DNA from: Bacteroidota bacterium
GTDB lineage: Bacteria; Bacteroidota; Ignavibacteria; UBA10030; BY39
Direction: 5' to 3'
Assembly: GCA_030682385.1 (NCBI GenBank)
Contig: JAUXOG010000067.1
Location: forward strand, 8,790-72,789
DNA length: 64,000 nucleotides
Part shown: positions 9,097 to 62,591 of the stretch, piece by piece
Layout of the letters: the number at the start of each line of letters is the position of its first letter
Position numbering within the stretch: position 1 is the stretch's first letter
Made by a program: the position numbers and the translations under genes
The notes under the pieces: generated by a model
Told to the model about the DNA's origin: nothing
The model's input: the letters and a program-made list of their open reading frames with translations, nothing else
Database searches by the model: none

Positions 9097-9203
9097 TTCG
9101 ACTACGATCAGGGTAAACGTTGAGCGAAGGATTTTTGCATAGAATTGAATGCCCTGAGTGATTAAGAAATATTTTGTAAACAAACAATAGAAAGAAGATT
9201 AAT

Positions 9204-10295: not shown

Positions 10296-10314
10296 TTTTC
10301 ATAAAAAGTTTTGC

Positions 10315-10358
10315 CCCAAACCCCGAATCGTTTTTTAACAATCGGGGTTTTTTGTTTC
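10315..10358 (+). terminator. Putative intrinsic terminator after add
   Basis: ccccga...tcgggg hairpin followed by a tttttt run. Confidence 0.5.
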
Positions 10359-10665
10359 ACCGATTCACCCGTTCTCCCCTTCTTCCTTTCTACCAGTCAA
10401 CAGCTACCGAGGATAACTAATTTCAGCATTCCACGGCTCATTATTGCAAACCATTCGTAAAATATTTCCTATAAGTTGATTTAATTTGACATAAATCACA
10501 TCGTTTTTTTTTTTTTTTGTTAGTAGTTTTTGAGGTTTAAAATTTGATTTTTTGCAATAAGATGTTTATATAATTACAAAGATAACGCGAAGGCAAAATG
10601 AAACTGAAAGAAACATAATTTATCAGCCGAATCTTTAGAGCAGGTTCAACAATACCAAAAACTAC

Positions 10666-11736: not shown

Positions 11737-11947
11737 TGCCGTATGAGGGTGGATAAATAATTCGGGGTAGTGCTGGCATACTACCCCACTGAATCGGCAA
11801 ACAAGATTCTCGGAAGCAACAAGTTAGCTCTATCCCGAGTTTCCCGGGACATCGCGTTTTTGTTTGCCAATAGAAAGATAATATTCCGCAGGAATTATTT
11901 CAACAATTTGTTCTAACAATAAACATAATATATAAGGAGATTAAGCC

Positions 11948-14900
11948 ATGAAATTAAAATCAGCTTTATTTATAACTCTCTTCCTACTTCTCTGTTTGTT
12001 TGAGAATTTGCAAGGACAAAGGATTATCTCGTTCCGCGACAAACACGGGAATACCTTACAAGCCGAAGTGGATGAGAAAACCGGGAGTGCCAAGAGAATT
12101 TTTGGCCTCAATCTGAATACACGTCAGTATGGATATGACCGAAGCAGTCTAACATCTGAAACCGTGAAGCAGCTTGGCAAACGCCTAATCGATGATTACG
12201 AAGAAATCCTGAAGACATCTTCGAAAAATGTTAATTTGAAGAAAGTGGATACCGATGGTCAATGGTGGTTTGTCGAGTATGAGCAAACTTTTGCTGGGAT
12301 TCCTGTATACAGTTCAGAAGCTGGTTTCACAATTGATCCTCAAGGAAACATTGTTACTGCAGGTGCTGTCGTCTTTCCGAATATAAGCATACGAACACAA
12401 GCCACCGTCCCTTCATTTCAGGCAATGTCAAAAGTAAAAGAAGAATTCGGAAGCGATAGCGCTACTGTTGAAAACGAACCTGAACTGTTTATAATTCCAA
12501 TAGAGCATGAGGCAAACTACAAATATTATCTTGTATGGAAAATAGGTCTTTCTTCCCTTCATCCATTGAGAGATACCGTTTATTTCGTGAGTGCAGAGAA
12601 TGGCAGCATTCTTAAGCGTCTCAGTAACATCCGAAATGATGTTATCTATGGTACAATCACAGGTAATTATTATCCTCAGCGCAGTTATGATCCCCCAATA
12701 CGTGTGGCCTATCCAACCACGTATATCAGGATGTATGATAAATTAGGCCAGGATGTTGTCTCTACGAATGCTGACCAGAACGGCAATTATTCGATAACGT
12801 ATTCAGTGGCATATGCAACTTATTATCTCGATATCAACTTGCAAAATCATTGGATACAGTTACGCAATGCGAGTGATAAAATTATCAGGAATACTTTTGC
12901 TTTCACACGAGCATCAAGTATCAGGCATGATTATGAATGGCCCGCAGGTGATGCAACAAATGTTTGGTATCATGCCACAAAAATTCATAATTTCTATCGC
13001 GGTAGCCCTTTTAGCTATACTGGGATGGACTATCAAATGAAAGCAACCGTAGGATTGGGAACGGATAGGAATGGGGCAGCTGATGGCACAAACATTTTCT
13101 TCGGATCGCAAGGTGGTCAATTGTGGGCTCGCTCAAGCGATGTCGTCTATCATGAATATACTCACAACACAATCTATCGCATCTACGGTGGTTGGATAGG
13201 TAGCGGTGGCAACACACAGGCATCTGCGATGGATGAGGGAATCTCAGATTACTTTGCGTGTACGTTCAACAATGATCCCTTAATGGGGGAAGATGTTCTG
13301 ATTGACCGAAATCTGAACAACGACACTTTTACATGGGACCCTGACAAAGGACCACATTGGAATGGTCAAGTCATCGGTGGTGCAGTATGGGACTTTCGTG
13401 AAGTCGTCAGCAGAAATGTAGCTGATAATCTTGCTTTCAAAGCTTTACAGGTGGTGCCGCGAGCGAGAGACTTTCCCACATATCTCTACAACATAATGGT
13501 TGCCGACAACGGCACGTATAACGGCGCCCATCGTTCTCAATTACGAACAGCCTTCGCCGCGCATAGCATTAACACTACCGAGCCGCTTCTCCCTCCTGTC
13601 ATCTCCGGTTTTACGCAAACACCATCGGTAATCTATAGGGGTGGTTCGGGAACAGTAACCGCACATCTATCGCAAGGGAATGGAAATATATCATACACAT
13701 GGTCGCCTACCTTTTTCCCTCAAGGTGCCTCTGTTGTGAGTTTCGACGAAAATAAAGCAAATATCTATTACGGATACAGCAAGACAGTTTCAACCGATGA
13801 TAGTAAAATTCCTGCTACAACGCTAACATGCACAGCAATCAATGAGGTAGGTTCTTCAACTTTGACAACCTTTGTTTACTTTTCAAGTGGTGGCGGCGGC
13901 GGTTGCCCATTCGTTTATACCTGGAACGGCAACGAATATATAGAGGATAATAACATACTTCCTCAAAGTGTTTATACTCCACCAGAAGAAGGGCTTGTTA
14001 CAGATTACTATCAACTTTTCACTGAGCCAGTTGAAACTGAAGGTAAATATAAATTACGAGTGGGCGAGTTTGAACAGGAAATATCAACACTCGATCAGTT
14101 TAAATTGTTAATAGTTGACCATATACCTGAAGCTATGGTTTCAGCTAACGACAATGGAGAGATTAGCTTATACGCCAAACCAGCTTCGTTAACCAACGCA
14201 AATGTTGACGACGGCGATGTTTATAAATTGGTTTACGAGAGGGATGATAATTATGTTGAAACCGAACCCGACCAATCGATGCAGCTAACATTCGAGGACG
14301 GACAAGTTGGCAGCGATAAAGTGATGTTGTTGCAAGCCAGTTCGGATTTGAAAGTACCATTCGGGGCTTTAGAAAAGTTAAACGGAAAGAATATAAACCC
14401 GCAGGATATCAAAGCGCGGAAAAATATGTCGTACGTATGGGTGCCTGTGGATGTGCAAAATCATAAAGAAACAAATATTGATATTGGTATTGCTTGGACA
14501 GGAACAGCAAAATTAGATTATATAGAATTAAGCAATAAACTGAATTTGGATTATACGTTACATGAATCTGAACTGATTTCAGCCGAACATTCGCAGGACG
14601 GTGATGTTACCTCTTTACTACAAAATAGCGATGGAAACATAGTAGAATTAAAACCGCAAGAATGGGTCGATTTAGTTTTCACAGCCCCACCTTTATCAGA
14701 GGGTATGAAACGCTCGTTTATATTTGTATCGTGTGGAAGGTATGTAACAATACCCGAAGATAAAAAAGAAACTCAAACCTTATCCCAAAAGGGTGGTATA
14801 AATGAAAATGTGAGAACGGTGAAGTTACCTGTTAGTTACGAATTGTTCGACAATCACCCTAACCCGTTTAACCCGATAACCAAAATCAGTTACACGATCC

Positions 14901-15106
14901 CTGAACCTAATTTTGTATCCTTAAAAATCTTTGATGTATTAGGTCGTGAGATAGCTACTCTTGTAGCAGAGTATCAGGATGCTGGTTATAAAACGGTAGA
15001 ATTTTCCGGAGTGTCCACCAACGGCGGATTACCAAGCGGCGTATATTTTTACAAACTGCAAGCTGGTAGTTTTATATCTGTTAAGAAGATGCTGCTCGCA
15101 AAATAA
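11948..15106 (+). CDS. Secreted zinc metallopeptidase (HEXXH) with a T9SS C-terminal sorting domain
   Basis: Signal peptide, VVYHEYTHN zinc-binding motif. The C-terminal ~80 aa match the Por/T9SS CTD (FDNHPNPFNPITKISYTIP...GVYFYKLQAGSFISVKKMLL). Confidence 0.75.
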   Translation: MKLKSALFITLFLLLCLFENLQGQRIISFRDKHGNTLQAEVDEKTGSAKRIFGLNLNTRQYGYDRSSLTSETVKQLGKRLIDDYEEILKTSSKNVNLKKVDTDGQWWFVEYEQTFAGIPVYSSEAGFTIDPQGNIVTAGAVVFPNISIRTQATVPSFQAMSKVKEEFGSDSATVENEPELFIIPIEHEANYKYYLVWKIGLSSLHPLRDTVYFVSAENGSILKRLSNIRNDVIYGTITGNYYPQRSYDPPIRVAYPTTYIRMYDKLGQDVVSTNADQNGNYSITYSVAYATYYLDINLQNHWIQLRNASDKIIRNTFAFTRASSIRHDYEWPAGDATNVWYHATKIHNFYRGSPFSYTGMDYQMKATVGLGTDRNGAADGTNIFFGSQGGQLWARSSDVVYHEYTHNTIYRIYGGWIGSGGNTQASAMDEGISDYFACTFNNDPLMGEDVLIDRNLNNDTFTWDPDKGPHWNGQVIGGAVWDFREVVSRNVADNLAFKALQVVPRARDFPTYLYNIMVADNGTYNGAHRSQLRTAFAAHSINTTEPLLPPVISGFTQTPSVIYRGGSGTVTAHLSQGNGNISYTWSPTFFPQGASVVSFDENKANIYYGYSKTVSTDDSKIPATTLTCTAINEVGSSTLTTFVYFSSGGGGGCPFVYTWNGNEYIEDNNILPQSVYTPPEEGLVTDYYQLFTEPVETEGKYKLRVGEFEQEISTLDQFKLLIVDHIPEAMVSANDNGEISLYAKPASLTNANVDDGDVYKLVYERDDNYVETEPDQSMQLTFEDGQVGSDKVMLLQASSDLKVPFGALEKLNGKNINPQDIKARKNMSYVWVPVDVQNHKETNIDIGIAWTGTAKLDYIELSNKLNLDYTLHESELISAEHSQDGDVTSLLQNSDGNIVELKPQEWVDLVFTAPPLSEGMKRSFIFVSCGRYVTIPEDKKETQTLSQKGGINENVRTVKLPVSYELFDNHPNPFNPITKISYTIPEPNFVSLKIFDVLGREIATLVAEYQDAGYKTVEFSGVSTNGGLPSGVYFYKLQAGSFISVKKMLLAK

Positions 15107-15123
15107 ATTACAATACTACAAGT

Positions 15124-15178
15124 AGCCGGCTCCTTTAGAACATCAAACATTCACCGTTCTTGGAGCCGGTTCTTTTTT
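15124..15178 (+). terminator. Intrinsic terminator
   Basis: gccggctcc ... ggagccggt stem followed by tcttttttat. Confidence 0.7.
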
Positions 15179-15282
15179 ATATACCAAACCTTTGGCGAAT
15201 TACACCTATCTTGCTTTTTAAAACTAACTTTCCTAAATTTCACACGTCATTTTATAATTTTCCCATCAAAGGAGTTTGACTT

Positions 15283-15702
15283 ATGAATTTTTATCAATCA
15301 GGTTGGACTAAAGTTTTAACAACCTATCATCGCTTTGCGGGCAGTTGGGCTTGGATATTTCACCGCATCAGCGGCTTGGCTCTTACTGCTTATATCTTTA
15401 TGCACATCATTGCATTATCAAATTTACAGAAACATAAAATCGATGGCGGCAAAGCTTTCAACGAAGAAATGGCACTCTTCTCATCTCCGTTTTTCCTGGT
15501 AATAGAATGGCTGCTCTTCGCTTTCGTGCTGTATCATACTCTAAACGGAATTCGAATTGTGCTCGTTGATTTTGCCAATGGCGCCCGCTACCATAAGCAA
15601 CTTCACTATGCTGTTGTAACAATCGGTGTCATTGCATTCATAGCGATGGGTTATGTTATTTTCAGTCATCAAGTTAATAAAACTGTTGCAATGTTATTTT
15701 AA
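15283..15702 (+). CDS. sdhC: Succinate dehydrogenase cytochrome b subunit
   Basis: 139-aa polytopic membrane protein, first gene of a C-D-A-B operon. Confidence 0.75.
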   Translation: MNFYQSGWTKVLTTYHRFAGSWAWIFHRISGLALTAYIFMHIIALSNLQKHKIDGGKAFNEEMALFSSPFFLVIEWLLFAFVLYHTLNGIRIVLVDFANGARYHKQLHYAVVTIGVIAFIAMGYVIFSHQVNKTVAMLF

Positions 15703-15722
15703 AATTTATTTAGGAGCATTTT

Positions 15723-16076
15723 ATGTCGTATAAACATTTAGGTTCACGAAATTCAGGCGCACCCGGCTGGTTGTTTCAACGCATAACGGGAATTGTGCTG
15801 ATAGTGGCAATGGTCGGCCATTATATTCTAATGCACTACACTCCGACATCGGGACATTCATTTGCTTCAACTTTCGAGCGGATGCAAAACCCGCTCTGGA
15901 AAGTTTTTTATCTCTCGTTTGTTGTGGTTGGAATTTACCATGGCTTGAACGGAGTTTGGGGAGTTGTGCGCGATTTTAAAATGAAAAGATGGCTCAGTAT
16001 GACGATTCTCGGTGCGATGATTATTTTGGGCATCGCCTTTGCAGTTTTCGGATTTATGAATGTTCTGGTTTTTTAA
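15723..16076 (+). CDS. sdhD: Succinate dehydrogenase hydrophobic membrane anchor subunit
   Basis: 117-aa membrane protein between sdhC and sdhA. Confidence 0.7.
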   Translation: MSYKHLGSRNSGAPGWLFQRITGIVLIVAMVGHYILMHYTPTSGHSFASTFERMQNPLWKVFYLSFVVVGIYHGLNGVWGVVRDFKMKRWLSMTILGAMIILGIAFAVFGFMNVLVF

Positions 16077-16085
16077 AATAATGAA

Positions 16086-16101
16086 TCCGTTAGCTAACGG
16101 A
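16086..16101. promoter_or_regulatory. Perfect 16-bp palindrome TCCGTTAGCTAACGGA between sdhD and sdhA
   Basis: Direct reading. The same palindrome recurs at 24584-24599, with variants at 18722, 26837 and 42630. Candidate operator or RNA hairpin. Confidence 0.5.
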
Positions 16102-16137
16102 TGAACATTGAATTTAGAATAAAGAAGGATTTGTTAA

Positions 16138-17886
16138 ATGATTCACAAACACGATGTACTAATAGTAGGTGCCGGACTTGCCGGTTTACGTGCCGCGGTT
16201 GAATTAGCCGGCAAAGCCGATGTTGCAGTGCTTTCAAAAGTTTTTCCAACACGCTCGCACTCTGGTGCCGCTCAGGGCGGAATAGCCGCCGCTCTCGGTA
16301 ACGAAGAAGAAGACCACGTCGAGTGGCACATTTTCGATACTGTAAAAGGGAGCGATTATTTAGGCGATCAGGATGCGATTGAGATGATGGTATCGGAGGC
16401 GCCCGAAGTAATTATCGAACTCGAACACATGGGCGTGCCGTTCAGCAGAACAAAAGAAGGAAAAATTGCACAACGGCAATTCGGCGGACACACACGTCCG
16501 AAAGTTGGTGCCGACGGAAAAGAAACCCGAGTAGCAATTCAACGAGCTTGTTATGCTGCCGACAGAACCGGTCACGTCATTCTGCACACTTTGTATGAAC
16601 AATGCGTAAAGCATAATGTGCATTTTTATTCCGAGTATTATGTTGTTTCGCTTATTGTAAAAGATGGGGTCTGCCGCGGACTTGTTGCTTTCGATATTCA
16701 AACCGGCGAGCTGCATACTTTCCACGCAAAGGCAGTGATGTTCGGAACAGGCGGTTACGGAAGAGCCTGGAAAATTACATCGAATGCGTATGCGAATACC
16801 GGCGACGGAGTTGCGATTGCGTATCGTGCGGGGATTCCGCTAGAAGATATGGAGTTTGTTCAGTTCCATCCAACAGGACTTTGGAAGTTAGGAATTTTAG
16901 TAACCGAGGGTGCACGCGGCGAAGGCGGCTATCTTAAAAATAAAAACGGTGAACGCTTTATGAAAAACTATGCACCGACTGTAATGGAGCTTGCACCTCG
17001 CGATATGGTAACCCGCTCAATCACAACTGAAATTTTAGAAGGACGCGGGATTGACGGAAAAGATTACGTGCATCTCGACCTCACACATGTTGGTGAAGCT
17101 ACTTTAAAAGAACGCCTCCCCGAAATTATCGGCTTTGCTAAAACTTATGTTGGCGTCGACCCTGTAAAAGCGCCGATACCAATTCAACCGACAGCACACT
17201 ACTCGATGGGCGGAATTCCGACTTCTCTTTTCGGTGAAGTTTATTTAGATGAGAAGGGAACAATTCTTACCGGCTTTTATGCTGCCGGCGAATGTGCCTG
17301 CATCAGCGTTCACGGCGCCAATCGTTTAGGAACTAACTCGCTCTTAGATGGCGTAGTCCACGGTCGCAGAACAGGAAAACAAATTGCAAAATTTTTACAA
17401 ACTGCCGAGTTCAGTGAATTACCGGAAAATGCCGATACAGCCGACCGTGCAAGGATTGATGAATTGTTCGCTTCTACAAATTTCAAAGAATCGTATCATC
17501 ACATTAAAGATACGCTACGCGATAATATGATGGCAAAAGCAGGCGTGTACCGGAACGAAAAAGATTTGAAAGAAATGAAGCAAATAATTCATGAACTCCG
17601 TGAAAAATATAAAAATGTCGGTTTGCGGGATAAGAGTAAAAATTTCAACACCGAGTTAATGGAGGTTTTGGAGTTAGGTCATTTACTCGAATTTTCAGAA
17701 GTAGTTGTTGAAGGTGCGATTGCCCGTCAGGAATGCCGCGGCGCTCACTGGCGCACCGATTTCGAAAAGCGCGACGACACGAACTGGATGAAACACACAT
17801 TCGCATTCAGAACCGAGAAAGGCATCGAGTTAAAATACAAACCGGTTACAGTTACAAAATATCAACCGATGGAAAGAAAATATTAA
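16138..17886 (+). CDS. sdhA: Succinate dehydrogenase flavoprotein subunit
   Basis: [13 protein letters not shown] fold. [10 protein letters not shown] marks the covalent-FAD His region. 582 aa. Confidence 0.9.
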
Positions 17887-17926
17887 CCGGCAAATTACAA
17901 ATATCAAATTATCAATAGGCATAAAT

Positions 17927-18625
17927 ATGCAAGTAACATTCTCAATCCAAAGATACGATTCATCTAAAGACAAAAAGCCATATCGGCAGGAATTCAAATT
18001 AGACGTTGAGCCGACGGATAGAATCCTGGATTGCCTCGACCGCATCAAGTGGGATTTCGAAGGAAGTTTAACTTACCGCCGTTCCTGCTCTCACGGAATT
18101 TGCGGCTCGGACGCAATCAACATCAACGGTAAAAACATGCTCGCCTGTCAGGTTCTGATACAGGACATTAAGAAGAAACGTATTAAAATCGACCCTATTC
18201 CCGGAATGCCTATCATCAAAGATTTGGTTGTGGATACTACCGATTTCTTCGCAAAGTACGAAGTAGTAAAGCCGTATCTGATTGCAAAAAATCCTCCGCC
18301 AAAAGAACGCTTCCAATCAGTCGCAGACAGAGCGTTAATAGATGAAGCGGTTAACTGTATTTTGTGCGGCGCCTGCACAAGCTCCTGCCCTTCGATGTGG
18401 GGCAATCCAAATTATTTAGGTCCTGCCGCAATGCTCAAAGCTTACCGCTTCGCATTCGACAGCCGCGACGAAGCCCCCGCCGAACATTTAGAAGCAATCG
18501 ACACAAGCGACGGTGTTTGGCGTTGTCATACAATATTCAATTGTGTAGAAGCCTGCCCGAAAGAAATTAACCTCACCTGGCACATCTCGCAGTTGAAAAA
18601 GAAAATGGTGGAGAGAGAGTTGTAA
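17927..18625 (+). CDS. sdhB: Succinate dehydrogenase iron-sulfur subunit
   Basis: CSHGICGSDA (2Fe-2S) and CILCGACTSSCP / CHTIFNCVEACP (4Fe-4S and 3Fe-4S) cysteine clusters. Confidence 0.9.
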   Translation: MQVTFSIQRYDSSKDKKPYRQEFKLDVEPTDRILDCLDRIKWDFEGSLTYRRSCSHGICGSDAININGKNMLACQVLIQDIKKKRIKIDPIPGMPIIKDLVVDTTDFFAKYEVVKPYLIAKNPPPKERFQSVADRALIDEAVNCILCGACTSSCPSMWGNPNYLGPAAMLKAYRFAFDSRDEAPAEHLEAIDTSDGVWRCHTIFNCVEACPKEINLTWHISQLKKKMVEREL

Positions 18626-18687
18626 AAATAAGTAGTAAGAAGTAAATAGTATGTAGATGCCCTGATTCCGAAGTGTTCGGGAGCGGG

Positions 18688-18737
18688 GCTTTTTTGTTTA
18701 ACTCCTTCCAATTTTCTATTAATCCGTTAGCTAAAGG
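18688..18737. promoter_or_regulatory. Conserved 33-nt motif (GGCTTTTTTGTTTAACTCCTTCCAATTTTCTAT) followed by a TCCGTTAGCTAAAGGA near-palindrome
   Basis: 30/33 identical to 24607-24640 upstream of hemE. Contains TTTG and, ~20 nt later, TAtt, resembling the FCB-group -33/-7 promoter layout. Confidence 0.4.
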
Positions 18738-19023
18738 ATTTCTTTTTTGGCTCATCGAAAGGTTTGTTTACATTTCAAGATTCCTTTTTAGAACGTAGAA
18801 CGTTCTTTACTCATTTGACGCTCGAATTATACGATAAAACACATTCCATTCAACCGCACGATTTTACCCCCCCCCATAACAGCTATAACTCCTTATATTT
18901 CAACTGGTTATAAAAGGCAATTTTTTTGGCGAAAAAATAGGATTTTTAAAAAATAAAATATATATTACCAGCAAACAAATAAAAACAATTCGCTCGACTC
19001 TTTGAGCGGAAAGGACTGCGGTT

Positions 19024-20739
19024 ATGAAAAATGCATTTATTATTTTTTTTATTGCTTTCACTTTATTAATCAGTTTTTTTGATAGCGAGATAGTTTTAGC
19101 TCAAAATATTAAAAGGTTACAAAATTTTGTTGATGACCGAAAAAACAAAATAGACCCTTCATTTTTAATAGATGATTCTTCGCGAACAATTAATGTGGGG
19201 AAGTTACAAAACCAAAATGTATTACAACTGCTAACCGATACAACCGGCTGCCCGACTGAGTTGACAACGGAGATGAGACTTACTCCAGATATTGGTGGAT
19301 ATCCAACAATAGCACAACAGGGCGAAGATTACATACATCTAACATGGGATTTTGATGGTGATAAATTAATGTATGCGCGCTCGATCGATCAGGGTATTAC
19401 ATTCAATGTAAGAGACATAACAGATACAATTATGTTTCCTAAAGGTGTTGCATCGGCAAGAATATTAGCAAGCGAAAAATATGTCTATTTATTTTTCCTT
19501 TCGATGAGTGGAGGACAAGACATATCGCCTGTTTATATGATTCGTTCATCAGATAGAGGTGAAACATTTGATACCCCCCGTATTACAACTAATATGAATG
19601 CAGTTACAGCTACATTTCAGTGGCAGGCAATTTCAGGAGACACAATAGTTTTATTACACAATCGTTATTTACACTATTCCACAAGTGCCGGTAATACCTG
19701 GCGAACAAAAAGGAATCGCTTGAGTTTTTTGCTAAAGGAATCGCGTTATGGTTTAAATAAAATTATAATTAATAACGGCATTGTACACATCATATATGAA
19801 AAATATATATATAACAAATATCGGAGACGATATGTAAAAGAAGTTTTATACCGACGGACAGCAAATTTAGGCAGGAGTTGGAGCCGTCAGCGAGTGCTTT
19901 CAGCTATAGATGGAAATACATCGTGGAACCCATTAGGTTTAACAGCTTCAATAAACGGAGATATATATGCTAGCTGGCGTGAGCATAGGCTTGGTAGTTA
20001 CAACGGATTGAGTGGTAGTTTTGCATATCGCAAGTCGGAGGATAATGGATTGAGCTGGGGACCAGAAATTGCATTAACACAAACACCCGAGGCATATCCC
20101 GCTGTAATGCCAATACATGTTAACAGTTACACAGGTAATCCCGTAGCAGTTGTATGGACAAAAGACACAACAAACATTTTCTTTGGTCCTTTTATTTCAC
20201 AAGTAAAGGCACGGATATCTTTAAATAGAGGTAATACCTGGTGTCCGGAAGTACAAATCACACCGGAAGATAATTCAGGTGCCAATGCAGTTTGTGTTTT
20301 AAATTCGCGTATATTAATACTTTATAGTAAAAATATGTTACCAGGACTTGGTGAGTGGGCTATCCATATGAGATCTGCCCCTTTTAAAATACATTCATCA
20401 TCTCAGTTTCAAAATAACGGTGGGGGCGAACTTGGCAGTGAAGAACTTGGAAAAATTATACTTGAGCAGAACTATCCCAATCCATTTAATTCTAATACAA
20501 ATATTGTATTTTACGTACCATCATTTATTGAAAGCCCTGTTGTTACATTAAAGGTATATAATCTGCTGGGGCAGGAGGTATCAGCGATAATTGAAAACGA
20601 ACAAATCGAAAGCGGCGAACATACGAAAGAATTTAATGCTGCACACCTGTCATCTGGTGTGTATTATTATCAGTTGAATGTTAGAGATGACGAAGGACAA
20701 GTATATAGAGAAATGAAGAAATTATTGATAATTAAATAG
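19024..20739 (+). CDS. Secreted BNR/Asp-box repeat (sialidase-like beta-propeller) protein with a T9SS C-terminal sorting domain
   Basis: Signal peptide. SxDxGxTW-type repeats (SSDRGETF, STSAGNTW, SEDNGLSW, SLNRGNTW). C-terminal NYPNPFNSNTNIVFYVP...GVYYYQL CTD. Confidence 0.7.
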   Translation: MKNAFIIFFIAFTLLISFFDSEIVLAQNIKRLQNFVDDRKNKIDPSFLIDDSSRTINVGKLQNQNVLQLLTDTTGCPTELTTEMRLTPDIGGYPTIAQQGEDYIHLTWDFDGDKLMYARSIDQGITFNVRDITDTIMFPKGVASARILASEKYVYLFFLSMSGGQDISPVYMIRSSDRGETFDTPRITTNMNAVTATFQWQAISGDTIVLLHNRYLHYSTSAGNTWRTKRNRLSFLLKESRYGLNKIIINNGIVHIIYEKYIYNKYRRRYVKEVLYRRTANLGRSWSRQRVLSAIDGNTSWNPLGLTASINGDIYASWREHRLGSYNGLSGSFAYRKSEDNGLSWGPEIALTQTPEAYPAVMPIHVNSYTGNPVAVVWTKDTTNIFFGPFISQVKARISLNRGNTWCPEVQITPEDNSGANAVCVLNSRILILYSKNMLPGLGEWAIHMRSAPFKIHSSSQFQNNGGGELGSEELGKIILEQNYPNPFNSNTNIVFYVPSFIESPVVTLKVYNLLGQEVSAIIENEQIESGEHTKEFNAAHLSSGVYYYQLNVRDDEGQVYREMKKLLIIK

Positions 20740-26689: not shown

Positions 26690-27003
26690 ATTGGTTCATT
26701 GAATCAATGCCCGCCTGCCTTAACGGATTCAATTTAGCGGGCAGGGATAAATTAACAAATGAAAGAATCTTTTCTGAATATCGAATAATGAATAATGAAG
26801 TGTGCCTTAGTGTCCGTCAACTGACGGATTTGTGTCTAGGTGACAAAAAGCTGAGCCACTAATTCCACGAATATGCACACGAATTAGTGTATATTAGTGT
26901 AACCTGCCCGACGGCAGGCGGGTTCGTGGCGAAAAATTAACCCACATGGTGTTAAAAATCTTCTCTGATAATTTAATAAATCTCTAATGACAAATTTGGA
27001 TCA

Positions 27004-28481: not shown

Positions 28482-29342
28482 TTAAATTCTTATTGATAAA
28501 GTGACTTTGCTCGACCGTGTAGTATAGTCCGAGTAAAACTCAAACTTAATTTTATTATTTTCAACGTAAACTTTTTCCCCCTCACTGCTGATTGCATCGG
28601 AAATGTTAAATATGTAAATTGCGCCAGCAGCAATAAAGCATCCTAAGCTTATATCTTCATATAAATTGGTTTGGTCATTATAATAATCTCGGAGTGCCTG
28701 TGTCCTTGAGTTCTCAGCGTCTGTCTTTGCTGTTAATTTCAAATTGTGAAATATAAAAGCCGCAGAAACCAGTATTACTTCAGTTCCTGCGATCAGAAAT
28801 CCTTTTGTGTTTTGTCCTTTATATAATTGACCCCAACCCGGTAATAATGTTGAACGCCAAACAGGTGAGAAAGAACTTGGTGGTGATTCAAACCCCTTTG
28901 TTTTGGGAATCTTCACTAAGCTCCAAAAAGTGTATGACGTACCCTCAGTTTCTTGGTATCTTTCTTCTTCAATCAGACCCCGTATGGTTATAGACTTTCC
29001 ATCTATTGCCAATTCTCTCGCACTCTTTCTCACTAATTCGATAGATTGGTTGTTATTCAAATTTCGTTGTATGAGATACGAAGTATCACGCTGTGATGCA
29101 GTAACTACAATTTCTCTGCTCTGTTGGATTCGATAGATTGCATCTACCAGCGCTTTTTCATGTGCATCTGAATAAGAAGAATCGCTCGTGCCGATACCGA
29201 TAAAATAATCGTTGAGGTATCCTTTTGGTGTTTCGTCAATCCAGCGTGGGTGATCTGATTGGTTGCTTTGCGCGTTAGCCCGTAGGAGAAAAAATGCCAG
29301 CATCATTATCAATGCTGGCATTCGCTTGATTACTTTCAACAT
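28482..29342 (-). CDS. Hypothetical secreted/membrane protein, LPP20-like N-domain plus a C-terminal transmembrane segment
   Basis: Signal peptide MLKVIKRMPALIMMLAFFLLRANA. LLPGWGQLYKGQN is followed by a hydrophobic helix. Confidence 0.4.
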   Translation of the reverse strand: MLKVIKRMPALIMMLAFFLLRANAQSNQSDHPRWIDETPKGYLNDYFIGIGTSDSSYSDAHEKALVDAIYRIQQSREIVVTASQRDTSYLIQRNLNNNQSIELVRKSARELAIDGKSITIRGLIEEERYQETEGTSYTFWSLVKIPKTKGFESPPSSFSPVWRSTLLPGWGQLYKGQNTKGFLIAGTEVILVSAAFIFHNLKLTAKTDAENSRTQALRDYYNDQTNLYEDISLGCFIAAGAIYIFNISDAISSEGEKVYVENNKIKFEFYSDYTTRSSKVTLSIRI

Positions 29343-29350
29343 TATGATCC

Positions 29351-29953
29351 TTACTTAGATTGGTCTTTGAGTTCTTTCAAAAGATCATCAGCAACTTTTT
29401 CGGCTTTCTGGTTATTTTCCTTTTGGGCTTGCTTCTTCATTTCATCATATGCGCCATAAAGCGATGCCTGATAATCTTTCTTTGAGATTTTTAGACGAGT
29501 GTAGCAATTGTAAGAATATGTCAGACCGCTTGGCTCGTTCTTCTCAACTTTTTCCCAATACGATTCCGGGCTGGTAACGCCCATGATTCGTTTGGTATCG
29601 GATACCCAAGCAATTGCAAACGAGCTATAACGACCGACATCACCATCGCTCATGTTGGCGCCTTGCAACGCTTGAGTAGTTTGTGTTTTAACTTCGTTCC
29701 CCATTGTGTTAACAAGCTTTTGCATACCGTCTGCATTGGCTTGATTCATGCCGAAGGACATATCGTATGCTTTGGTCATAACACCTGTAACGTAGAGATC
29801 ACCGTCTGTGAACTCGCTCGTTTTCATGAGCCAATCGGGCTTACTTGAAGTGCTTGCATTGATTGTTTTTTCTTCACCGATTTGCATTTCTTTGGAGCCG
29901 GAGCAGCCGAAGATTGAAAAGGCAAGTACTAAAATTAAAGCTATGAATTTCAT
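29351..29953 (-). CDS. Hypothetical lipoprotein (LPP20-like)
   Basis: Lipobox LAFSIFGCSG. DGDLYVTGVMTKAY resembles the LPP20 family. Confidence 0.45.
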   Translation of the reverse strand: MKFIALILVLAFSIFGCSGSKEMQIGEEKTINASTSSKPDWLMKTSEFTDGDLYVTGVMTKAYDMSFGMNQANADGMQKLVNTMGNEVKTQTTQALQGANMSDGDVGRYSSFAIAWVSDTKRIMGVTSPESYWEKVEKNEPSGLTYSYNCYTRLKISKKDYQASLYGAYDEMKKQAQKENNQKAEKVADDLLKELKDQSK

Positions 29954-30028
29954 AAGAGTCTCCTTATTTTAATGATTGATGTTGGATGAACTTCAGTTCG
30001 TCATATATGTAAAATGAAGTTTGGATTG

Positions 30029-30592
30029 CTATCGTTGTTTTGATGTTATTGATAAAAGCTGTACTGTATCGAAAAATAACTTTCGGGATTTTTTCAATTC
30101 TTCCTTGACGGTGGCTAAAGAGAATTTACCGCCATGAACAATGCTGTTTCTACGGTCTCTTACAATTTCCAGTTCTTTCAATAATCTCGGTGATTCGGAA
30201 CTAACCTTCTTTCCAGTCGCATCTTTGAAACCTTTAGTAAGTCTTTCAGATATTTTCCAATGAATTTTAAGGTAGCATTCTTTGGACATTCCAATTTTCT
30301 TTGTGTCCAAGTTATCTCTTAGCCAGGCAGAGACAAAAAGTTCAAGTGCTGAAAAATACGAGACCAATGCTATCCACTTCAACCGACTTTTCTGAATGCC
30401 TTGTGCTTCTTCAGCCCTTGCGCCTAGTTCATCCGCGATTGCCGCATAGTTGCGTGAAATAGCTCCCAGAAATTTGTACCTACACTGGAAGCCGCATTTG
30501 GGACACTTCATCAATGTTGCAAAGCTTCTCCTATTTTTAGTCTGGGGCATCATTTTAGTTTTTCTGCAACTTGGACAAGCAGCACCGTTCAT
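30029..30592 (-). CDS. Zinc-ribbon protein with a C-terminal R-x4-H (HEPN-like) motif. Candidate toxin or defence effector
   Basis: CPSCRK-x19-CPKCGFQC forms a CxxC...CxxC ribbon. RRNSIVHGG near the C-terminus fits the HEPN Rx4-6H signature. The ATG at 30592 is preferred over the TTG track start at 30613. Last gene of a tight three-gene operon. Confidence 0.4.
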   Translation of the reverse strand: MNGAACPSCRKTKMMPQTKNRRSFATLMKCPKCGFQCRYKFLGAISRNYAAIADELGARAEEAQGIQKSRLKWIALVSYFSALELFVSAWLRDNLDTKKIGMSKECYLKIHWKISERLTKGFKDATGKKVSSESPRLLKELEIVRDRRNSIVHGGKFSLATVKEELKKSRKLFFDTVQLLSITSKQR

Positions 30593-30614
30593 ATTCTTAC
30601 CTAACGAAATCAAT

Positions 30615-30875
30615 CTATTCGCCTTTTATTCTTCTTCTAATTTTCCGATGCGGATCGGGGTTGTTCGGCCAAAGGCTGGGTCCCTTGCGAGGTTTCACAG
30701 ACTTCTCTACAGGAGGTTCTGCAATTTTCTTCCAAATCCCATTTCCTAAATTCTCGATGCAATTATTACTTTCTAAGTATATCTTTACCTTCAGGAAGTT
30801 TCGATGTTCCTTTTCATTAAATTTCTCTCCAATTTCCATTTTACGAAAGGTATTTTCTATCCAGGGATTAAACAT
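30615..30875 (-). CDS. Hypothetical 86-aa protein with a basic C-terminus (middle gene of the three-gene operon)
   Basis: ATG start confirmed. 1-nt gap to the downstream gene. No family recognised. Confidence 0.4.
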   Translation of the reverse strand: MFNPWIENTFRKMEIGEKFNEKEHRNFLKVKIYLESNNCIENLGNGIWKKIAEPPVEKSVKPRKGPSLWPNNPDPHRKIRRRIKGE

Positions 30876-30887
30876 AAAGCCTTCCCC

Positions 30888-31187
30888 TTAATTTTCATTG
30901 GGAAGTTGACTTAAAAAAACTTTTACTTCCTCAGTGGTATAAAATTTCTTTTTGGGTAACCATTGTTCACCATCCTTTTTCTGATAAGAATAGAAAGGTG
31001 AAGAAGATTTATCTTGAGCAACCTTCAAGATTCTCTTTTCCTCTGATATAATGATTGCAACAGCAGTAACTTTGTCCTGAGTAGTGTGTGTCCATGGGTC
31101 ATTGCTAAGATGTTTCAGCGGATTCTCAATTTCTGTCAATTTGAAGTTGAGTTCAGATTCATCTGGAGTTATATTTTGTGGGTACAT
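30888..31187 (-). CDS. Hypothetical 99-aa protein (first gene of the three-gene operon)
   Basis: ATG start confirmed. 12-nt gap to the next gene. No family recognised. Confidence 0.4.
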   Translation of the reverse strand: MYPQNITPDESELNFKLTEIENPLKHLSNDPWTHTTQDKVTAVAIIISEEKRILKVAQDKSSSPFYSYQKKDGEQWLPKKKFYTTEEVKVFLSQLPNEN

Positions 31188-31669
31188 ATGTCGTTGTGCC
31201 TTAGTATTTATTCAAATGAAACTCACTTACTTCTCTAATCTTATTTGAAATTCTAACTTCATCAATAATACCAACAATTCCATAAAAAAAAGTTCCATTA
31301 TTATAAGAACCTATCGTAGGTGGGTAACCAGAGCCAGTTGAGACAAAACTTCCACTAGCAAGATCAACTTCCCGTTGGAGAACACCGTCAATAAAAAGTC
31401 GCTCTTTACGTGTTACAAAGTCGACCTGTGCTACCACATGATACCAGACACGTGAATGTAGTGTCGTTGAATGGATTATGGGCCACCCCCCCGTTGTATG
31501 TGCACCAAAGAAGATAGCCGAGTCGGGAGATGTAGCAAGCTGTACTTCGCCATCATTTCCGTTATAGTAGATATCCTTGCCCTGGTGTCCAATTTGTAAC
31601 TTTGACCCACGCTTCAATTGTCTGCTGTTGCGGTACAGACCCAAAAAGCGAAGTGCCGAGCGTAACTGG

Positions 31670-33175
31670 GGTATTATAATCCCAGATTGTTCAATAGGGC
31701 ATAATTTCTAATGACCGCCATTAGGAAAAAGCATAGCTAAGTTGTTATTTTATAGTAAGTTGTGCTATATTAGTCGAGCATAAAAACGATAATTTAACGA
31801 GTAAGAAAAGCATACATCAAAATGGAACTAAAAATCGAGTTTACCGACAAAGAGATCACTCCTTGGGGCGGCATGGTTTTAATGAAACAGTTGATAGAGA
31901 AGACAAAGATAAATGAAATATTAGAACGTCTTCCACTACCTGCTCAAAACTCAAATCGAGGTTATAACCCGATACAGTTGATAAACAATTTTTGGGTAAG
32001 CATATGGAGCGGAGCCAGTCGTTTTGAGCATTTAGAAGTGACAAGAATGGACAAAGTAATACAGAAAATATTTCGTTGGAAACAAATGGCTGGGCATAAA
32101 TCTTTCCAAAGATATTTTAAGAAATTCGGACAAGCAGATAACCAGCGAGTATTTACCGAACTATTCAACTGGTTTTTCAAACAGATAAAATTCGATAACT
32201 ACACATTAGATTTAGACTCAACGATAATGACAAGATATGGGAATCAACAAGGGGCGAAGAAAGGTTATAATCCGAAGAAGCCGGGGCGAAATAGTCATCA
32301 TCCTTTGATAGCATTTGTAGCAGATGTACGAATGACGGTAAACTTTTGGTTAAGAAGCGGGAACTCATATACAACAAATAATTTTTACAATTTTCTTGAA
32401 AACACCTTTGAGCGATTAGAAGGAAAGACTATAGGACTCTTAAGAGCAGACAGTGGGTTTTATGATAAAAAGATATTAGAATACTTGGAAAATCGAACAA
32501 AACCGGTCAATTACATAATAGCGGCAAAATTTTACAGACCTTTAAAACTAGCCATAGCAAGAGAGAAAACCTATTTAAGATTAGATGATGGGATAGAGAT
32601 AAGTGATACTATGTACCAAAGTCCTGAATGGGAAAAACCAAGACGTATGATAATAGTAAGACAAGAAATAAACCTACGTCCAAAAGCAACGGGAAAGCAG
32701 TTGCGGTTATTTGGAGAAGAAGAAGTATATAAAAATTACCGTTATAGTTGTTTAATAACCAACCTTAGCTTGTCGGCAAAGATGATATGGGATGCATACC
32801 GAAACAGAGCAGATGCAGAGAATCGAATAAAGGAATTGAAAGAAGATTTTGGAGCCGATAGTTTTAATGTAGAAAATTTCTTTGCGACTGAGGCAGCACT
32901 AAACTTTGTAGTGATGGGTTATAATTTGATGAGTTTATTTAGACAAGCAATACTACAAACAAAAACACAGCAACAATTAAAAACACTACGGTATAGAGTA
33001 TTTGCTATTGGCGCATACATTACAAAAAATGGTAATGATAGGATATTAAAATTATCATTAGCAATGAAACGGCGAAGCTGGTTTGAAGGACTTTGGTCGA
33101 GTACAAATCTTTTCAGCTGGCCGTTTGTTGCATTAAAAGAAAATTTCTAATGACAAATCTGGGATAATTAAAACT
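31670..33175 (+). mobile_element. Insertion sequence, IS4/IS1380-family-like, ~1.5 kb
   Basis: One transposase ORF. Imperfect terminal inverted repeats TTATAATCCCAGATT (left) and AATCTGGGATAATTAA (right). Boundaries are approximate and the target-site duplication is unresolved (possibly AACT). Confidence 0.7.
31822..33150 (+). CDS. DDE transposase (IS4/IS1380 family)
   Basis: 442 aa. NSHHPLIAFVADVRMTVNFWLRSGNSYTTNN and LLRADSGFYDKKILEYLE are characteristic DDE_Tnp_1-like blocks. Confidence 0.8.
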   Translation: MELKIEFTDKEITPWGGMVLMKQLIEKTKINEILERLPLPAQNSNRGYNPIQLINNFWVSIWSGASRFEHLEVTRMDKVIQKIFRWKQMAGHKSFQRYFKKFGQADNQRVFTELFNWFFKQIKFDNYTLDLDSTIMTRYGNQQGAKKGYNPKKPGRNSHHPLIAFVADVRMTVNFWLRSGNSYTTNNFYNFLENTFERLEGKTIGLLRADSGFYDKKILEYLENRTKPVNYIIAAKFYRPLKLAIAREKTYLRLDDGIEISDTMYQSPEWEKPRRMIIVRQEINLRPKATGKQLRLFGEEEVYKNYRYSCLITNLSLSAKMIWDAYRNRADAENRIKELKEDFGADSFNVENFFATEAALNFVVMGYNLMSLFRQAILQTKTQQQLKTLRYRVFAIGAYITKNGNDRILKLSLAMKRRSWFEGLWSSTNLFSWPFVALKENF

Positions 33176-35109
33176 TCTGGCATTTCCCCATTTCCCAACA
33201 ACTATTGCTGCATTGTTTGATATTCCGGTGTGTCCATTACCACTTGCATCTGCGACTGTGTTACCACTTGTTTCATCAAAGTGATAAAGTGCAATTGTAT
33301 TAGCATCGGTGGTATAAGGTCCACTATTAGAAGAAAGTGTTGTCACGTTTCTTTCGTTCGAATCACTCGTTAAGTTGCTATTATTCACTACCCTCACTTT
33401 GAAATAGTAAGTTGTATTTTGAGTCAATCCGCTCACCGTTGTGCTCGTAGTTGATTTGGATGCAATTGTCTGATATAACGTTCCTGAACTCGGAGTGAAA
33501 CTGCTTGTGGTTGATTTATGAATCTCATACTGTTTAAAATCAGCATCATTATTCTGGCTCCAACTCAAATTTACAGAAGATGTAGTAATGTTGGTTGGAA
33601 CGTACAGCGTTACAGACGTTGGGTTGCTTGCCGCCGGAACAGTCATAGAAACATTAACTGAATCGTTTCCGCCATTTGACGTAACGCTGAGCTTTCCCGA
33701 ATAATTTCCAGCGCCTAAACCAGAGCGATTTACATAAACATTTACAGTCATTTGATTGCTTCCGTTAGAAGGATTCACTGTCAGCCAATTTTGGTTTGAA
33801 GAAACTTGCCAGTTCAATGTACCAGACCCGCCGTTGGAAATATTGAAGTTTAAATTTGTTAATGTGCTGCCAAAATCCAATTGCTTTGTAGATAATGCTA
33901 ATGTTGGAACAGTTGGAGTCCTCATTTGAATTGCGACAGATTGACTTCCTCCATTTGAGGTAATATTTACTTGACCTGCATAACTATTTCCAGCCGTCAA
34001 TCCCGCCCTACTTACTTGAACTGTTACTACGTCTGTTTCGCTTCTTGTCGAATCATTTGTCGGAACGACGGAAATCCACGCTTGCGGAGATGCTGCTGAC
34101 CAGTTGAGCGTTCCCGTTCCCGTGTTAGAGATATTGAACTGAAGATCAATTTTGTCTAACCCAAAATCAAGTAATAAAGGCGAGGCGGTAAGTTGAGGTA
34201 AATTAGGATTCTGTACAGTCATAGTTATTGCAATATCTTTATTGCCGCCGTTGGAAGTGACAGTCAGTGTATTGTTGTAATTTCCATAGCTTAGTCCAGT
34301 GCGATTTACAGTTAAAGTTAGTGTGCTGGTGCCTGTCGTTAGCGATCCAGAAGCCGGATTCACTGTCAACCAATCAGCACTTTTGATGATAGACCAATTT
34401 ATAGTCCCAATTTGTGTTGTGTTCGTGAGTATGCAAGTTAAAGTTGTGATCCCAACGCCAAAATCAAGATTAGAACTTGAGACAGATAATTGCGGCAATA
34501 ATAATTCTAATTGAATGTCCGCAGACGCAGTGTAGCCTTCCTTCACTGCTACATTGATTGAGTTTTGTTTATAACCATCCTTAGTTGCAATTACACTATA
34601 TTGCCCCGATGAGACATTTGAAATCACGTAATTACCAAAACCATCCGTTGTTACTACAGAAGTCGTTGGATTAGTTGTAATAAGTGCACCTGATAAACCG
34701 TTATTAGTTATTTTTTCAGCAACCCTACCACTTATTTTTGTTTCAACTACTGGCACTTCCGTAGGTTTCTGTTTGCATGTGTTGAATAAAAATATTACTG
34801 TGATGATTAAACTTATTATTAAACATTTCATATGCTACCCTACAAATGACCCAATAATAAATAGCTTCCGTTATATGTGAAGATCTGCAGGTAGAAAACT
34901 ACCTACGTTATCTATGTGAAGTCTGCCAATGATTAAGTTTCTGAAATAATATCTGAATGTCAAGTAAAAAGGAGTAAACGAAGTAATATGCAAACACAGA
35001 GAAATTAGTAAATGTTTTAAAACAAAAATTAGGAATTTTCACCAAATTTCCTTATTAATTTATTACTTTTTTAACAAACTTCAGCACAACGAATATTCAT
35101 CAGTAGATT

Positions 35110-35952
35110 ATGGCAAATATAAAATTATTTGAAACAAAAAAAATTCGTTCTCAATGGGATGAACAAGAGCAGAAATGGTATTTTGCAATTGTTGATGTTG
35201 TTGCAGTGCTAACTGAGAGTGTTGATGCTCAGGCGTATTGGCGAAAGCTAAAAGAACGCCTTAAAAAGGAGGGAAATGAAACCGTGACAAACTGTCACGC
35301 TTTGAAAATGCAAGCAATGGACGGAAAAATGCGCCTCACCGATGTGGCAGATGTCCAGCAGATGCTTCGTCTAATCCAATCTATTCCTTCTCCAAATGCA
35401 GAACCTTTCAAACTCTGGTTAGCAAAAGTTGGGAATGAACGACTTGAGGAAATTGAGAATCCCGAGCTTGCACAAATGCGTATGCGTGAAATATATAAGG
35501 CAAAGGGTTACAGCGATGAATGGATCGAAAAGCGTGTCCGCGGCATTGCAGTAAGGGATGAGCTTACGAATGAATGGAAGAAGCGGGGTGTGAAAGAAGC
35601 AAAGGAATATGCAATCCTCACTGCCGAAATAAGCAAAGCCACATTTGGTTTAGTGCCAAGTGATTATAAAAAGCTAAAAGGATTAACGAAACCGCAGGAG
35701 AATTTGCGCGACCATATGAATGATCTTGAATTAATTTTTACCATGTTGGGCGAAGCAGCCACAACGGAAATAGCTCGAAATAAAGATGCGCAGGGTTTTC
35801 CTGAAAATGAGCAAGCCGCAGTCGAAGGTGGTACAGTGGCAGGAAATGCCAGAAAAGAATTGGAAAAGAAATCGGGCAGACAAGTAGTAACAAGTCAGAA
35901 TTATAAATTATTTTCAGAGAAAAAGGTACGACAACTAAGAAAGAAAAAGTAA
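35110..35952 (+). CDS. DinD/Bro-N-like (phage antirepressor-like, DNA-damage-inducible protein D family) protein
   Basis: KIRSQWDEQEQKWYFAIVDVVAVLTES ... AQAYWRKLKERL ... IQSIPSPNAEPFKLWLAKVG resembles the DinD/Bro-N N-terminal module. Identified from sequence memory only. Confidence 0.5.
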   Translation: MANIKLFETKKIRSQWDEQEQKWYFAIVDVVAVLTESVDAQAYWRKLKERLKKEGNETVTNCHALKMQAMDGKMRLTDVADVQQMLRLIQSIPSPNAEPFKLWLAKVGNERLEEIENPELAQMRMREIYKAKGYSDEWIEKRVRGIAVRDELTNEWKKRGVKEAKEYAILTAEISKATFGLVPSDYKKLKGLTKPQENLRDHMNDLELIFTMLGEAATTEIARNKDAQGFPENEQAAVEGGTVAGNARKELEKKSGRQVVTSQNYKLFSEKKVRQLRKKK

Positions 35953-47802: not shown

Positions 47803-48182
47803 AGACGTTCCATGGAACGTCTCCTGTCTTACGCACTGGGACACCCAAAACCAAGAATTGGAGTTTTATAAGATTAATAATTAACATACCGCTCCTACGG
47901 AGCGGGTAATATATTCTTTGATACATAGCTACAGACATACGAGTCCTACGGACTCGATAAATGGTAGTTATGAAACGACTCCAAAGGAGTCGAATGTCTG
48001 TAGTATTTGAAATATAAAATAATACCGACCCCAGCGGGGTCGAATGTTTGTATGTATTTTCCGTCTTACGCATTGGGACACCCGTATCCAAAAGTAAAAT
48101 GCGGTTTTTGGTAATATTTCTAAAGATTTTTCGTTTTTGTTAAAATTGTGCGGAAGTCAGGAGACGTTCCATGGAACGTCTC
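47802..48182. repeat. Copy 1 of a ~340-bp multi-hairpin intergenic element, bounded by two identical 22-bp palindromes (GAGACGTTCCATGGAACGTCTC)
   Basis: The core 47824-48160 is highly similar to 62190-62540. It contains four CGAnTCC-N3-GGAnTCG-type hairpins (ccgctcctacggagcgg, cgagtcctacggactcg, cgactccaaaggagtcg, cgaccccagcggggtcg). It also has two internal direct copies of CGTCTTACGCAYTGGGACACCC. Confidence 0.8.
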
Positions 48183-61945: not shown

Positions 61946-62126
61946 CCGGATAAAAATGTTAGAAATGGGATAAAACAAAGGATATAAGGATATACTTCAG
62001 CCAACTTATTAAAGGGGTAGGTAATAATTACCGAAATGGGTTGCATTTGTTACAAAGTCGGTAAAAATGCCTGAATATCGCTCTCCACTTCCTGTTTTTT
62101 CACTTTGTAATTCTTTATATCCTTCG

Positions 62127-62591
62127 CTCTGCTGGTTGCTGAGCTGTTAAACTGAGCTTGTCGAAGTTTTATCGAAGCTGGTTGCTCCCGTCTTACACAT
62201 AGGGCACCCAAAACCAAGAATTGGAGTTTTATAAGATTAAAAATTAACATTAGTTACAGACATACGAGTCGCCTTTGGCGACCTACGGACTCGATAAATG
62301 GTAGTTATGAAACGACTCCAAAGGAGTCGAATGTCTGTAGTACTTGAAATATAAAATAATACCGACCCCAGCGGCCTGCCCGCCGTCCCTCTTTTCGGGA
62401 CTTTGGTAGGCGGGGGGGCGAATGTTTGTATGTATTTTCCGTCTTACGCACTGGAACACCCGTATCCAAAAATAAAATGCGGTTTTTTGTAATATTTCTA
62501 AAGAATTTTCGTTTTTGTTAAAATTGTGCGGAAATCAGGTCTTTATTCTTATCTCTGCTGGTTGCTGAGCTGTAAACTGAGCTTGTCGAAG
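62127..62591. repeat. Copy 2 of the ~340-bp multi-hairpin element, bounded by 39-40-bp direct repeats (CTCTGCTGGTTGCTGAGCTGT(T)AAACTGAGCTTGTCGAAG)
   Basis: The core 62190-62540 aligns to 47824-48160 with two module swaps. One hairpin module is replaced by attagtta. The cgaccccagcggggtcg hairpin is expanded to a GC-rich hairpin containing GCCTGCCCGCC...GGTAGGCGGGGGGG. Confidence 0.8.

Follow-up and report, generated by a model that had tools for sequence, protein, structure and literature searches.

A GC-rich block in a MITE hairpin of an Ignavibacteria genome as a probable copy of a 21-nucleotide palindrome found in many phyla

Introduction

The GC clusters of yeast mitochondria, 30-60 bp in length, form several families with AG/TAG target features and are occasionally found in coding sequence, as in var1. 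The Rickettsia palindromic elements (RPE), whose description is attributed to Ogata et al. in 2000, reportedly measure ~100-150 bp, are confined to Rickettsia and sit in frame in genes, essential ones included. Repetitive extragenic palindromes (REP elements) have, according to PMC3733652, one end marked by a conserved, unpaired GTAG or CGTC tag.

Here we describe a GC-rich block located at 62373-62414 of the window, that is, of the whole 64,000-nt stretch of DNA analysed. This block probably represents a decayed copy, with internal nesting, of an ultra-short non-autonomous mobile element, named U. The U1 consensus, CCTGCCCGTCCGGCAGGCGGG, is 21 nt long, with a 6-bp stem CCTGCC/GGCAGG closing a 5-nt loop, and CGGG as a 3' tail, and U2, CCTGCCTGTCCGGTAGGCAGG, is a perfect-stem variant. 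As in REP elements, the sequence is an imperfect palindrome within the 20-40-nt range and is GC-rich relative to its genome. It starts with CCTG and ends with CGGG, CGTC being present only inside the loop, so that the REP tag is absent, and it forms neither an extragenic nor a species-specific family.

Results

Two non-coding repeats of ~340 nt were found on the forward strand of the window, at 47823-48161 (copy 1, 339 nt, downstream of hemL) and at 62187-62539 (copy 2, 353 nt, with the ends CCCGTCTTACACAT and the reverse complement of CCTGATTTCCGCAC), with 95.3% identity over 300 aligned nt outside indels. The internal 21-mer of the repeat matched 8 metagenome loci, in each of which this word forms one end of a full-length insertion sequence (IS); it gave 0 matches in the first genome-collection scan and in the viral-contig scan. 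The transposase of these full-length ISs, at loci L004 and L005, matched the IS1634-family NCBIfam model NF033559 with E = 4e-107, and the termini of the window repeat, CCTGTCTTACGCAC and the reverse complement of CCTGACTTCCGCAC, match both ends of the L004 and L005 elements. Judged from these sequence matches, the ~340-nt repeat is a non-autonomous MITE derived from an IS1634-family IS. Three other identities considered for the repeat, namely structured RNA, CRISPR-like array and REP cluster, were dropped, its ends matching IS1634-family IS ends.

The alignment of the two MITE copies (alignment A1) showed three larger indels and one single-base indel. Compared with the hairpin of copy 1, copy 2 exhibits a 41-column insertion at ~62373-62414 together with one T>G change. 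The empty-site hairpin of copy 1 (48026-48042, forward strand) is CGACCCCAGCGGGGTCG, or CGACCCC-AGC-GGGGTCG; it is intact, and its DNA fold has an energy of -7.6 kcal/mol (z = -3.4). Alignment with copy 1 and the predicted outer pairing place the host hairpin of copy 2 at 62363-62420 (forward strand), where it is split by the inserted module, with a left arm CGACCCC (62363-62369), the loop AGC and a right-arm remnant GGGGGCG (62414-62420). Since the GC-rich block lies inside a dispersed mobile element, the other copy provides a clean paralogous empty site.

Several features of the MITEs themselves were also observed. A perfect 20-nt direct duplication (47803-47822 and 48162-48181) brackets copy 1, the duplicated 20 nt being the palindromic hemL terminator AGACGTTCCATGGAACGTCT. 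This is unusually long for a target duplication; long, variable target duplications are a trait of IS1634, and no obvious one was seen for the full-length ISs of L004 and L005. The left terminus has a second, internal copy in each MITE (48060 and 62438), and each copy contains a series of hairpin-plus-AATGTCTGTAGTA units in both orientations. Downstream of pyruvate kinase, the flanks of copy 2 (62112-62186 and 62540-62591) show the arrangement A-B-A'-MITE-A''-B', with a ~50-nt segment duplicated at ~88% identity, which suggests successive events there. Two other indels between the copies, at 47888-47925 in copy 1 and at 62270-62281 in copy 2 (12 nt, placed in the loop of another hairpin), create or carry the small GC hairpins CCGCTCC-TAC-GGAGCGG and GTCGCC-TTT-GGCGAC; counts of such hairpins elsewhere were too low for a family.

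Four intergenic modules, at three loci of the window, all contain CCTGCCCG followed within 45 nt by [CT]AGGCGGG on the same strand. Module C (62375-62414, forward strand), which is absent from MITE copy 1, has the arms CCTGCCCG (62375-62382) and TAGGCGGG (62407-62414), and folding of its loop gave a nested hairpin GTCCC-TCTTTTC-GGGAC (62385-62401). Two modules occupy the hemH-hemY spacer in inverted orientation, ~157 nt apart: B2 (26903-26922, forward strand) is a minimal 20-nt unit, CCTGCCCG-AC-GGCAGGCGGG, and B1 (26710-26745, reverse strand), lying 20 nt past the hemH stop codon, has the arms CCTGCCCG and GGCAGGCGGG around an 18-nt AT-rich loop. Module A (388-449, forward strand) is a nested copy with outer U2-like arms, CCTGCCTG (388-395) and GTAGGCAGG (441-449), inner U1-like arms, CCTGCCCG (398-405) and CAGGCGGG (433-440), and, within the latter, an innermost hairpin CTGCCAG..CTGGCGAG; its DNA fold has an energy of -20.9 kcal/mol (z = -2.5). 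When the modules were compared with intrinsic terminators, defined by a GC-rich stem directly followed by a T-run, only module A was found to be followed by a T-run (452-466), and B1, B2 and C have none. With this T-run behind it, module A may have been co-opted as a terminator; it was not among the calls of a terminator scan that covered positions 1-20000 of the window.

The arm pair CCTGCCCG..(<=45 nt)..[CT]AGGCGGG, a pattern defined post hoc, occurs 4 times in the window and in 0 of 300 dinucleotide shuffles. The first arm, CCTGCCCG, was observed 6 times against 0.57 expected, two of the six being in coding sequence (18552 and 27324), and allowing one mismatch per arm revealed no further window loci. 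None of the modules combines the canonical TCC loop with a length of 21 nt, B2 being 20 nt long with the loop AC and B1, A and C being expanded or nested; similar loop variants were found elsewhere. To derive module C from U1, one more nested 21-nt hairpin and a C>T change are needed. We read the window modules as decayed or derived U copies; as no window copy matches the U1 consensus exactly, the activity in this genome may be ancient. Rfam 15 gave no gathering-level match in the window, with chance-level matches only at sites A and B, and a tRNA/tmRNA scan found none. The 8- to 14-mers shared between the window flanks and the fetched loci (TTCGTGGC, GTCGGCGGACAGGT) were within chance expectation.

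An earlier sequence-only reading of this DNA had proposed a GC-rich hairpin module recurring at three distant sites and replacing a simple hairpin in copy 2. The GC-rich sequences that it quoted are present in the window, the copy-2 hairpin is indeed altered, by a 41-nt GC-rich insertion relative to the intact copy-1 hairpin, and the four modules have both arms in common. The three loci stand, with four modules in all. The terminator-like hairpin that it placed at 401-447 does contain the GC-rich words, but the module spans 388-449; likewise, the repeats upstream of hemY proved to be two modules, at 26710-26745 and 26903-26922 instead of 26721-26762 and 26879-26897. The coordinates of these sites were thus shifted by 10-25 nt, and the identity of copies 1 and 2 as IS1634-family MITEs was not part of that reading.

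We compared these loci with the closest relatives, which are uncultured, with source records labelled Ignavibacteria or Bacteroidota, and whose HemY and FTCD_C proteins are 84-90% and 91-92% identical, respectively. The hemH-hemY spacer measures 314 nt in the window versus 37-81 nt in the relatives. The closest relative, L010, lacks B2 in its orthologous spacer, where the right junction falls exactly at TTCGTGGCG (alignment A3), and B1 is absent in L009, beside a shared ATAAATTAACAAATGAAAG (alignment A4); the left junctions are blurred by divergence. The spacer of module A is at least 748 nt long in the window versus 96-171 nt in relatives, and the orthologous spacer of L272 and L273 contains a simpler hairpin that has the 14-mer GGCGAGCAGGCGGG in common with module A. 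No complete module was found in ~75 kb from close relatives (L009-L011 and L272-L274). The four modules have their arms in common, orthologous and paralogous empty sites are found, and insertion was precise, without target-site duplication.

The expanded spacers (window positions 1-748 and 26690-27003) are mosaics of segments shared with different relatives and novel inserts. At 663-748, 8-mer tandem repeats (CCACTACT and CCACCACG variants) adjoin the FTCD_C stop codon and have apparently expanded from the 3' end sequence of this gene. The AT-rich motif GAATAATGAATAA(T/C)GAA recurs in the spacers (17-30, 100-120 and 26783-26800), and a related run is present in the L009 hemH-hemY spacer. The gene order past hemY differs between the window and L009, and an inserted island may account for the region 28482-35952, where ORFs lacking Pfam matches are accompanied by a weak HEPN-like match and a phage-associated protein, Bro-N.

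Outside the window, exact U1 was found in at least 120 stretches of species-representative genomes, isolates included, from ~15 phyla, this taxonomic breadth resting partly on the labels of metagenome-assembled genomes (MAGs). The carriers belong to Bacteroidota, Ignavibacteria, many Patescibacteria lineages, Planctomycetota, Nitrospirota, Elusimicrobia, Margulisiibacteriota, Chloroflexia, Acidobacteriota, Proteobacteria, Synergistales and Chlorobiaceae. For an exact 21-mer in the low-GC DNA of this collection, the chance expectation is estimated to be far below one. In viral contigs, exact U1 was present in 19 stretches and exact U2 in 15, with 0 for the reversed-sequence control, and a two-arm scan of low-GC viral contigs gave, among the matches listed, many 20-21-nt units CCTGCCCG-TCC-GGCAGGCGGG with unrelated flanks; the two-arm viral counts, like those of U1 in species-representative genomes, are lower bounds. 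BLAST searches with U1 yielded one exact match in PLSDB plasmids and none in GenBank phages. Point-mutated, 20-nt, nested and loop-expanded variants occur. The flanks of U are unconserved, with weak base preferences only; longer conserved flanks were not found around the 'ATC-U-CGC' contexts, and the search for other cross-phylum 12-mers or small-hairpin families in the fetched loci gave nothing convincing. No published description of U was found by sequence, peptide or concept in a literature coverage that excluded most subscription journals, where an earlier description is possible, and REP and HUH papers had nothing relevant for the arm sequences and related terms. U is apparently a widespread and undescribed mini-palindrome family, of which the window module is a member.

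The U sites are enriched in hairpin loops and tandem repeats. A perfect inverted repeat of at least 6 bp lies within 6 nt of 17.5% of U sites versus 1.7% of random positions drawn from these loci (p = 5e-15), which corresponds to a ~10-fold enrichment of U at the apex of host inverted repeats, and 5.6% of U sites versus 0.06% have a tandem-periodic context, a ~90-fold enrichment. Tandem heptamer repeats keep their phase across an inserted U unit, and this continuity indicates that no target duplication is made. We found also U nested in the loops of other U copies (L126). The preference for hairpin loops and the nesting of U in U match the position of module C in the MITE hairpin and the nesting in module A.

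Copies of U occur in both orientations, in unrelated genes and in simple repeats, and the same sequence is found across phyla. More than half of the low-GC U sites (78/134, 58%) are inside ORFs of 150 aa or longer. All six frames of U1 are free of stop codons, and an in-frame copy adds 7 codons; the peptides counted were RLPDGQ (27), PARPAGG (19), PPAGRAG (15), LPVRQAG (10), PACRTGR (4) and CPSGRR (3), the two Cys-encoding frames being depleted among coding copies. In the propeller protein of L233, RYD[ARLPDGQ]GKSF is present three times beside normal RYDGKSF blades. A termite-gut MAG, WRKG01 (IMG 2820306284), contains several distinct prophages with ~1 U copy per 1-1.5 kb in both orientations (loci L255, L254, L102, L032, L086 and L041), almost all in structural genes, namely terminase, portal, sheath and tape-measure. 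Among the large host ORFs examined, 6 of 10 code for aminoacyl-tRNA synthetases (aaRS). These enzymes are over-represented among U1 coding hosts (L162, L184, L208, L216/L244, L232 and L193), and in L193 U is located where an aaRS fragment meets a DUF559 endonuclease-like domain.

Occupied and empty versions of one coding site were found in the methionyl-tRNA synthetase (MetRS) of Ignavibacteria (genes at L208 and L275-L278). Three proteins have WGIKVPVD[PPAGRAG]SAxGKVIYVW, one has the variant LPAGQAG, and in six the insert is exactly absent. In the DNA, GA|T is the sequence of the empty site, and the filled one has GA|CCCGCCTGCCGGACGGGCAGG|T, identical in the three genes, CCCGCCTGCCGGACGGGCAGG being the exact reverse complement of U1. 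The three filled genes are 74-80% identical overall and 40-49% identical at four-fold sites, and filled and empty genes are interleaved in a neighbour-joining tree. U is patchily present at one identical MetRS codon whose neighbouring four-fold sites are near saturation. Such a patchy, interleaved distribution implies either repeated hits at one nucleotide position or several seamless losses with the sequence maintained, and under either route the unit behaves as an active element that inserts and excises precisely. The L278 MetRS (P0272) has in addition a second 7-residue insertion, RQSTGQS (alignment A5, columns 327-333), whose DNA, GCCCGTCAATCAACCGGGC, resembles a decayed unit of the U kind.

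Discussion

We propose that, once the two MITE copies had diverged, U inserted into the loop of the 7-bp hairpin in copy 2, or beside this loop, and that the other window modules would be further U copies, minimal in B2, loop-expanded in B1 and nested in A. U would be moved in trans by an enzyme encoded elsewhere, or, alternatively, might be driven by a host-general replication or repair route. In the former case, movement might proceed through single-stranded DNA, with seamless excision and insertion by an HUH/Y1-type enzyme (RAYT or IS200 type), a possibility that we put forward tentatively and consider somewhat doubtful. This type was chosen because its chemistry gives seamless excision and insertion and because it recognises hairpins. 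Hairpin loops would be targeted as the exposed single-stranded part of extruded hairpins, and genic copies would survive owing to the 21-nt length (7 codons) and the lack of stop codons in six frames. No RAYT/Y1 transposase was detected among the 29 window ORFs scanned in Pfam. Clustering of the ORFs beside U at 120 loci revealed no linked protein family, only common housekeeping families recurring, and in the U-saturated prophage contigs no candidate enzyme was seen among the 25 most frequent of 52 Pfam families, PHROGs giving ordinary prophage genes. In IS608 and REP/RAYT biochemistry, HUH enzymes are not known to transpose a substrate as small as a single 21-nt hairpin.

In a wider reading, to which we give a little less than even weight, U would be an undescribed kind of selfish DNA: a geneless, stop-free 21-bp palindrome, with one sequence in more than 12 phyla, that enters and leaves seamlessly at single-stranded loops, simple repeats and specific codons of essential genes (e.g. 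aaRS), its driver being either a broadly transferred enzyme or a replication or repair activity universal to hosts.

The best of the alternatives, though an unlikely one, is that the modules are a canonical REP/BIME, a species-adapted extragenic palindrome mobilised by a RAYT (TnpA-REP) encoded elsewhere in the genome. U does resemble such elements as a short, imperfect, GC-rich palindrome with conserved asymmetry that inserts without target duplication, the inverted B1 and B2 at ~157 nt recall a REP doublet, and RAYT subclasses with atypical flanking structures are reported in Bacteroidetes in PMC6006769. However, an end tag of the GTAG/CGTC kind described in PMC3733652 is absent, one 21-mer is found in many phyla instead of one family per species, low-GC copies are mostly within ORFs, and neither the 29 window ORFs scanned nor the surroundings of 120 copies showed a RAYT. 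The REP/BIME-like label given by the sequence-only reading is not supported by the ends of the unit, by its taxonomic distribution or by its location, 58% of low-GC U sites being in long ORFs. The idea of a mobile palindrome that spreads into pre-existing hairpins is borne out by the empty hairpin of MITE copy 1 and, family-wide, by the inverted-repeat flanks (17.5% versus 1.7%). Overall, the earlier interpretation is partly supported.

The hairpin might instead be a functional cis element under selection (a protein-binding site, or an mRNA or DNA structure), its spread reflecting recruitment and not selfish mobility. The exact sequence kept in three MetRS genes with near-saturated synonymous sites speaks for such a function, as does module A, which stands at the expected position of a terminator and is followed by a T-run. 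We nevertheless judge this improbable, because copies occur in both orientations, in unrelated genes, in prophage structural genes and in simple repeats, because they are exactly absent from close homologues, and because no Rfam match was obtained.

A purely local origin of module C, by replication template switching or quasi-palindrome extension of the MITE hairpin with no mobile element, is very improbable: the module C arms are not copied from neighbouring sequence and are identical at three other window sites and across phyla, even if MITE copy 2 has a 12-nt hairpin-forming insertion in another hairpin (62270-62281) and the B1 loop contains GATTCAAT, complementary to ATTGAATC in the upstream flank of B1 itself. 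Still less probable are independent GC-rich intrinsic terminators that came to similar words by convergence. The T-run behind module A and the position of B1, 20 nt beyond the hemH stop codon, would fit terminators, but no T-run follows B1, B2 or C, a MITE surrounds C, both 8-mers are present in the same order in all four modules versus 0 of 300 shuffles, the modules are absent in relatives and the arms recur in hundreds of unrelated contexts. On this point the earlier proposal holds, the shared arms and the empty sites in relatives favouring one small GC-rich palindromic element over independent terminator stems. A sequencing or assembly artefact common to public assemblies, for which one could invoke 21 as a common smallest k-mer and the many MAGs among U1 matches, is hardly credible, as isolate genomes from different laboratories carry the 21-mer, point-mutated, 20-nt, nested and loop-expanded variants exist, reading-frame usage is skewed as for translated sequence and U1 is not known to match any adapter sequence.

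Returning to the reading of the block as a U copy, if U is confirmed as mobile, it would be among the smallest mobile DNA units known, and unusual in keeping one sequence across phyla. Cultivable U1 carriers, such as Aequorivita capsosiphonis DSM 23843, Flavobacterium soyangense and Mucilaginibacter sp. PPCGB 2223, would offer a tractable system in which to study the copying of a bare hairpin into new sites. U would explain recurrent 7-residue indels (PPAGRAG, RLPDGQ, PARPAGG) in conserved proteins, which may mislead alignments and phylogenies, and it would be a source of new hairpins, terminators and intergenic expansion in AT-rich genomes. For annotators it provides a simple maskable signature.

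Compared with known systems, U is close to REP, BIME and REPIN elements, which are also short, GC-rich, imperfect, dispersed and non-autonomous palindromes without target duplication that can cluster or nest, often at gene 3' ends; U differs from REP by its shorter length (20-21 nt), the lack of a GTAG/CGTC tag, its presence in many phyla, its frequency in coding sequence and the fact that no RAYT linkage was seen. RPE are likewise palindromic selfish DNA that adds an in-frame peptide segment without destroying the protein, whereas U is only 21 bp long, is stop-free in six frames and crosses phyla. The yeast mitochondrial GC clusters are optional GC-rich palindromes in an AT-rich genome with presence/absence polymorphism, as U is, but they are organellar and eukaryotic, without cross-phylum identity. 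MITEs have in common with U that they are non-autonomous, dispersed and hairpin-forming; transposase-derived terminal inverted repeats and target duplication are both lacking in U, and the MITE of the window is only its landing site. Finally, inteins and homing introns resemble U in reoccupying the same site in essential conserved genes such as those of aaRS, with a patchy distribution and seamless absence, whereas U encodes nothing and its 7 residues stay in the called proteins.
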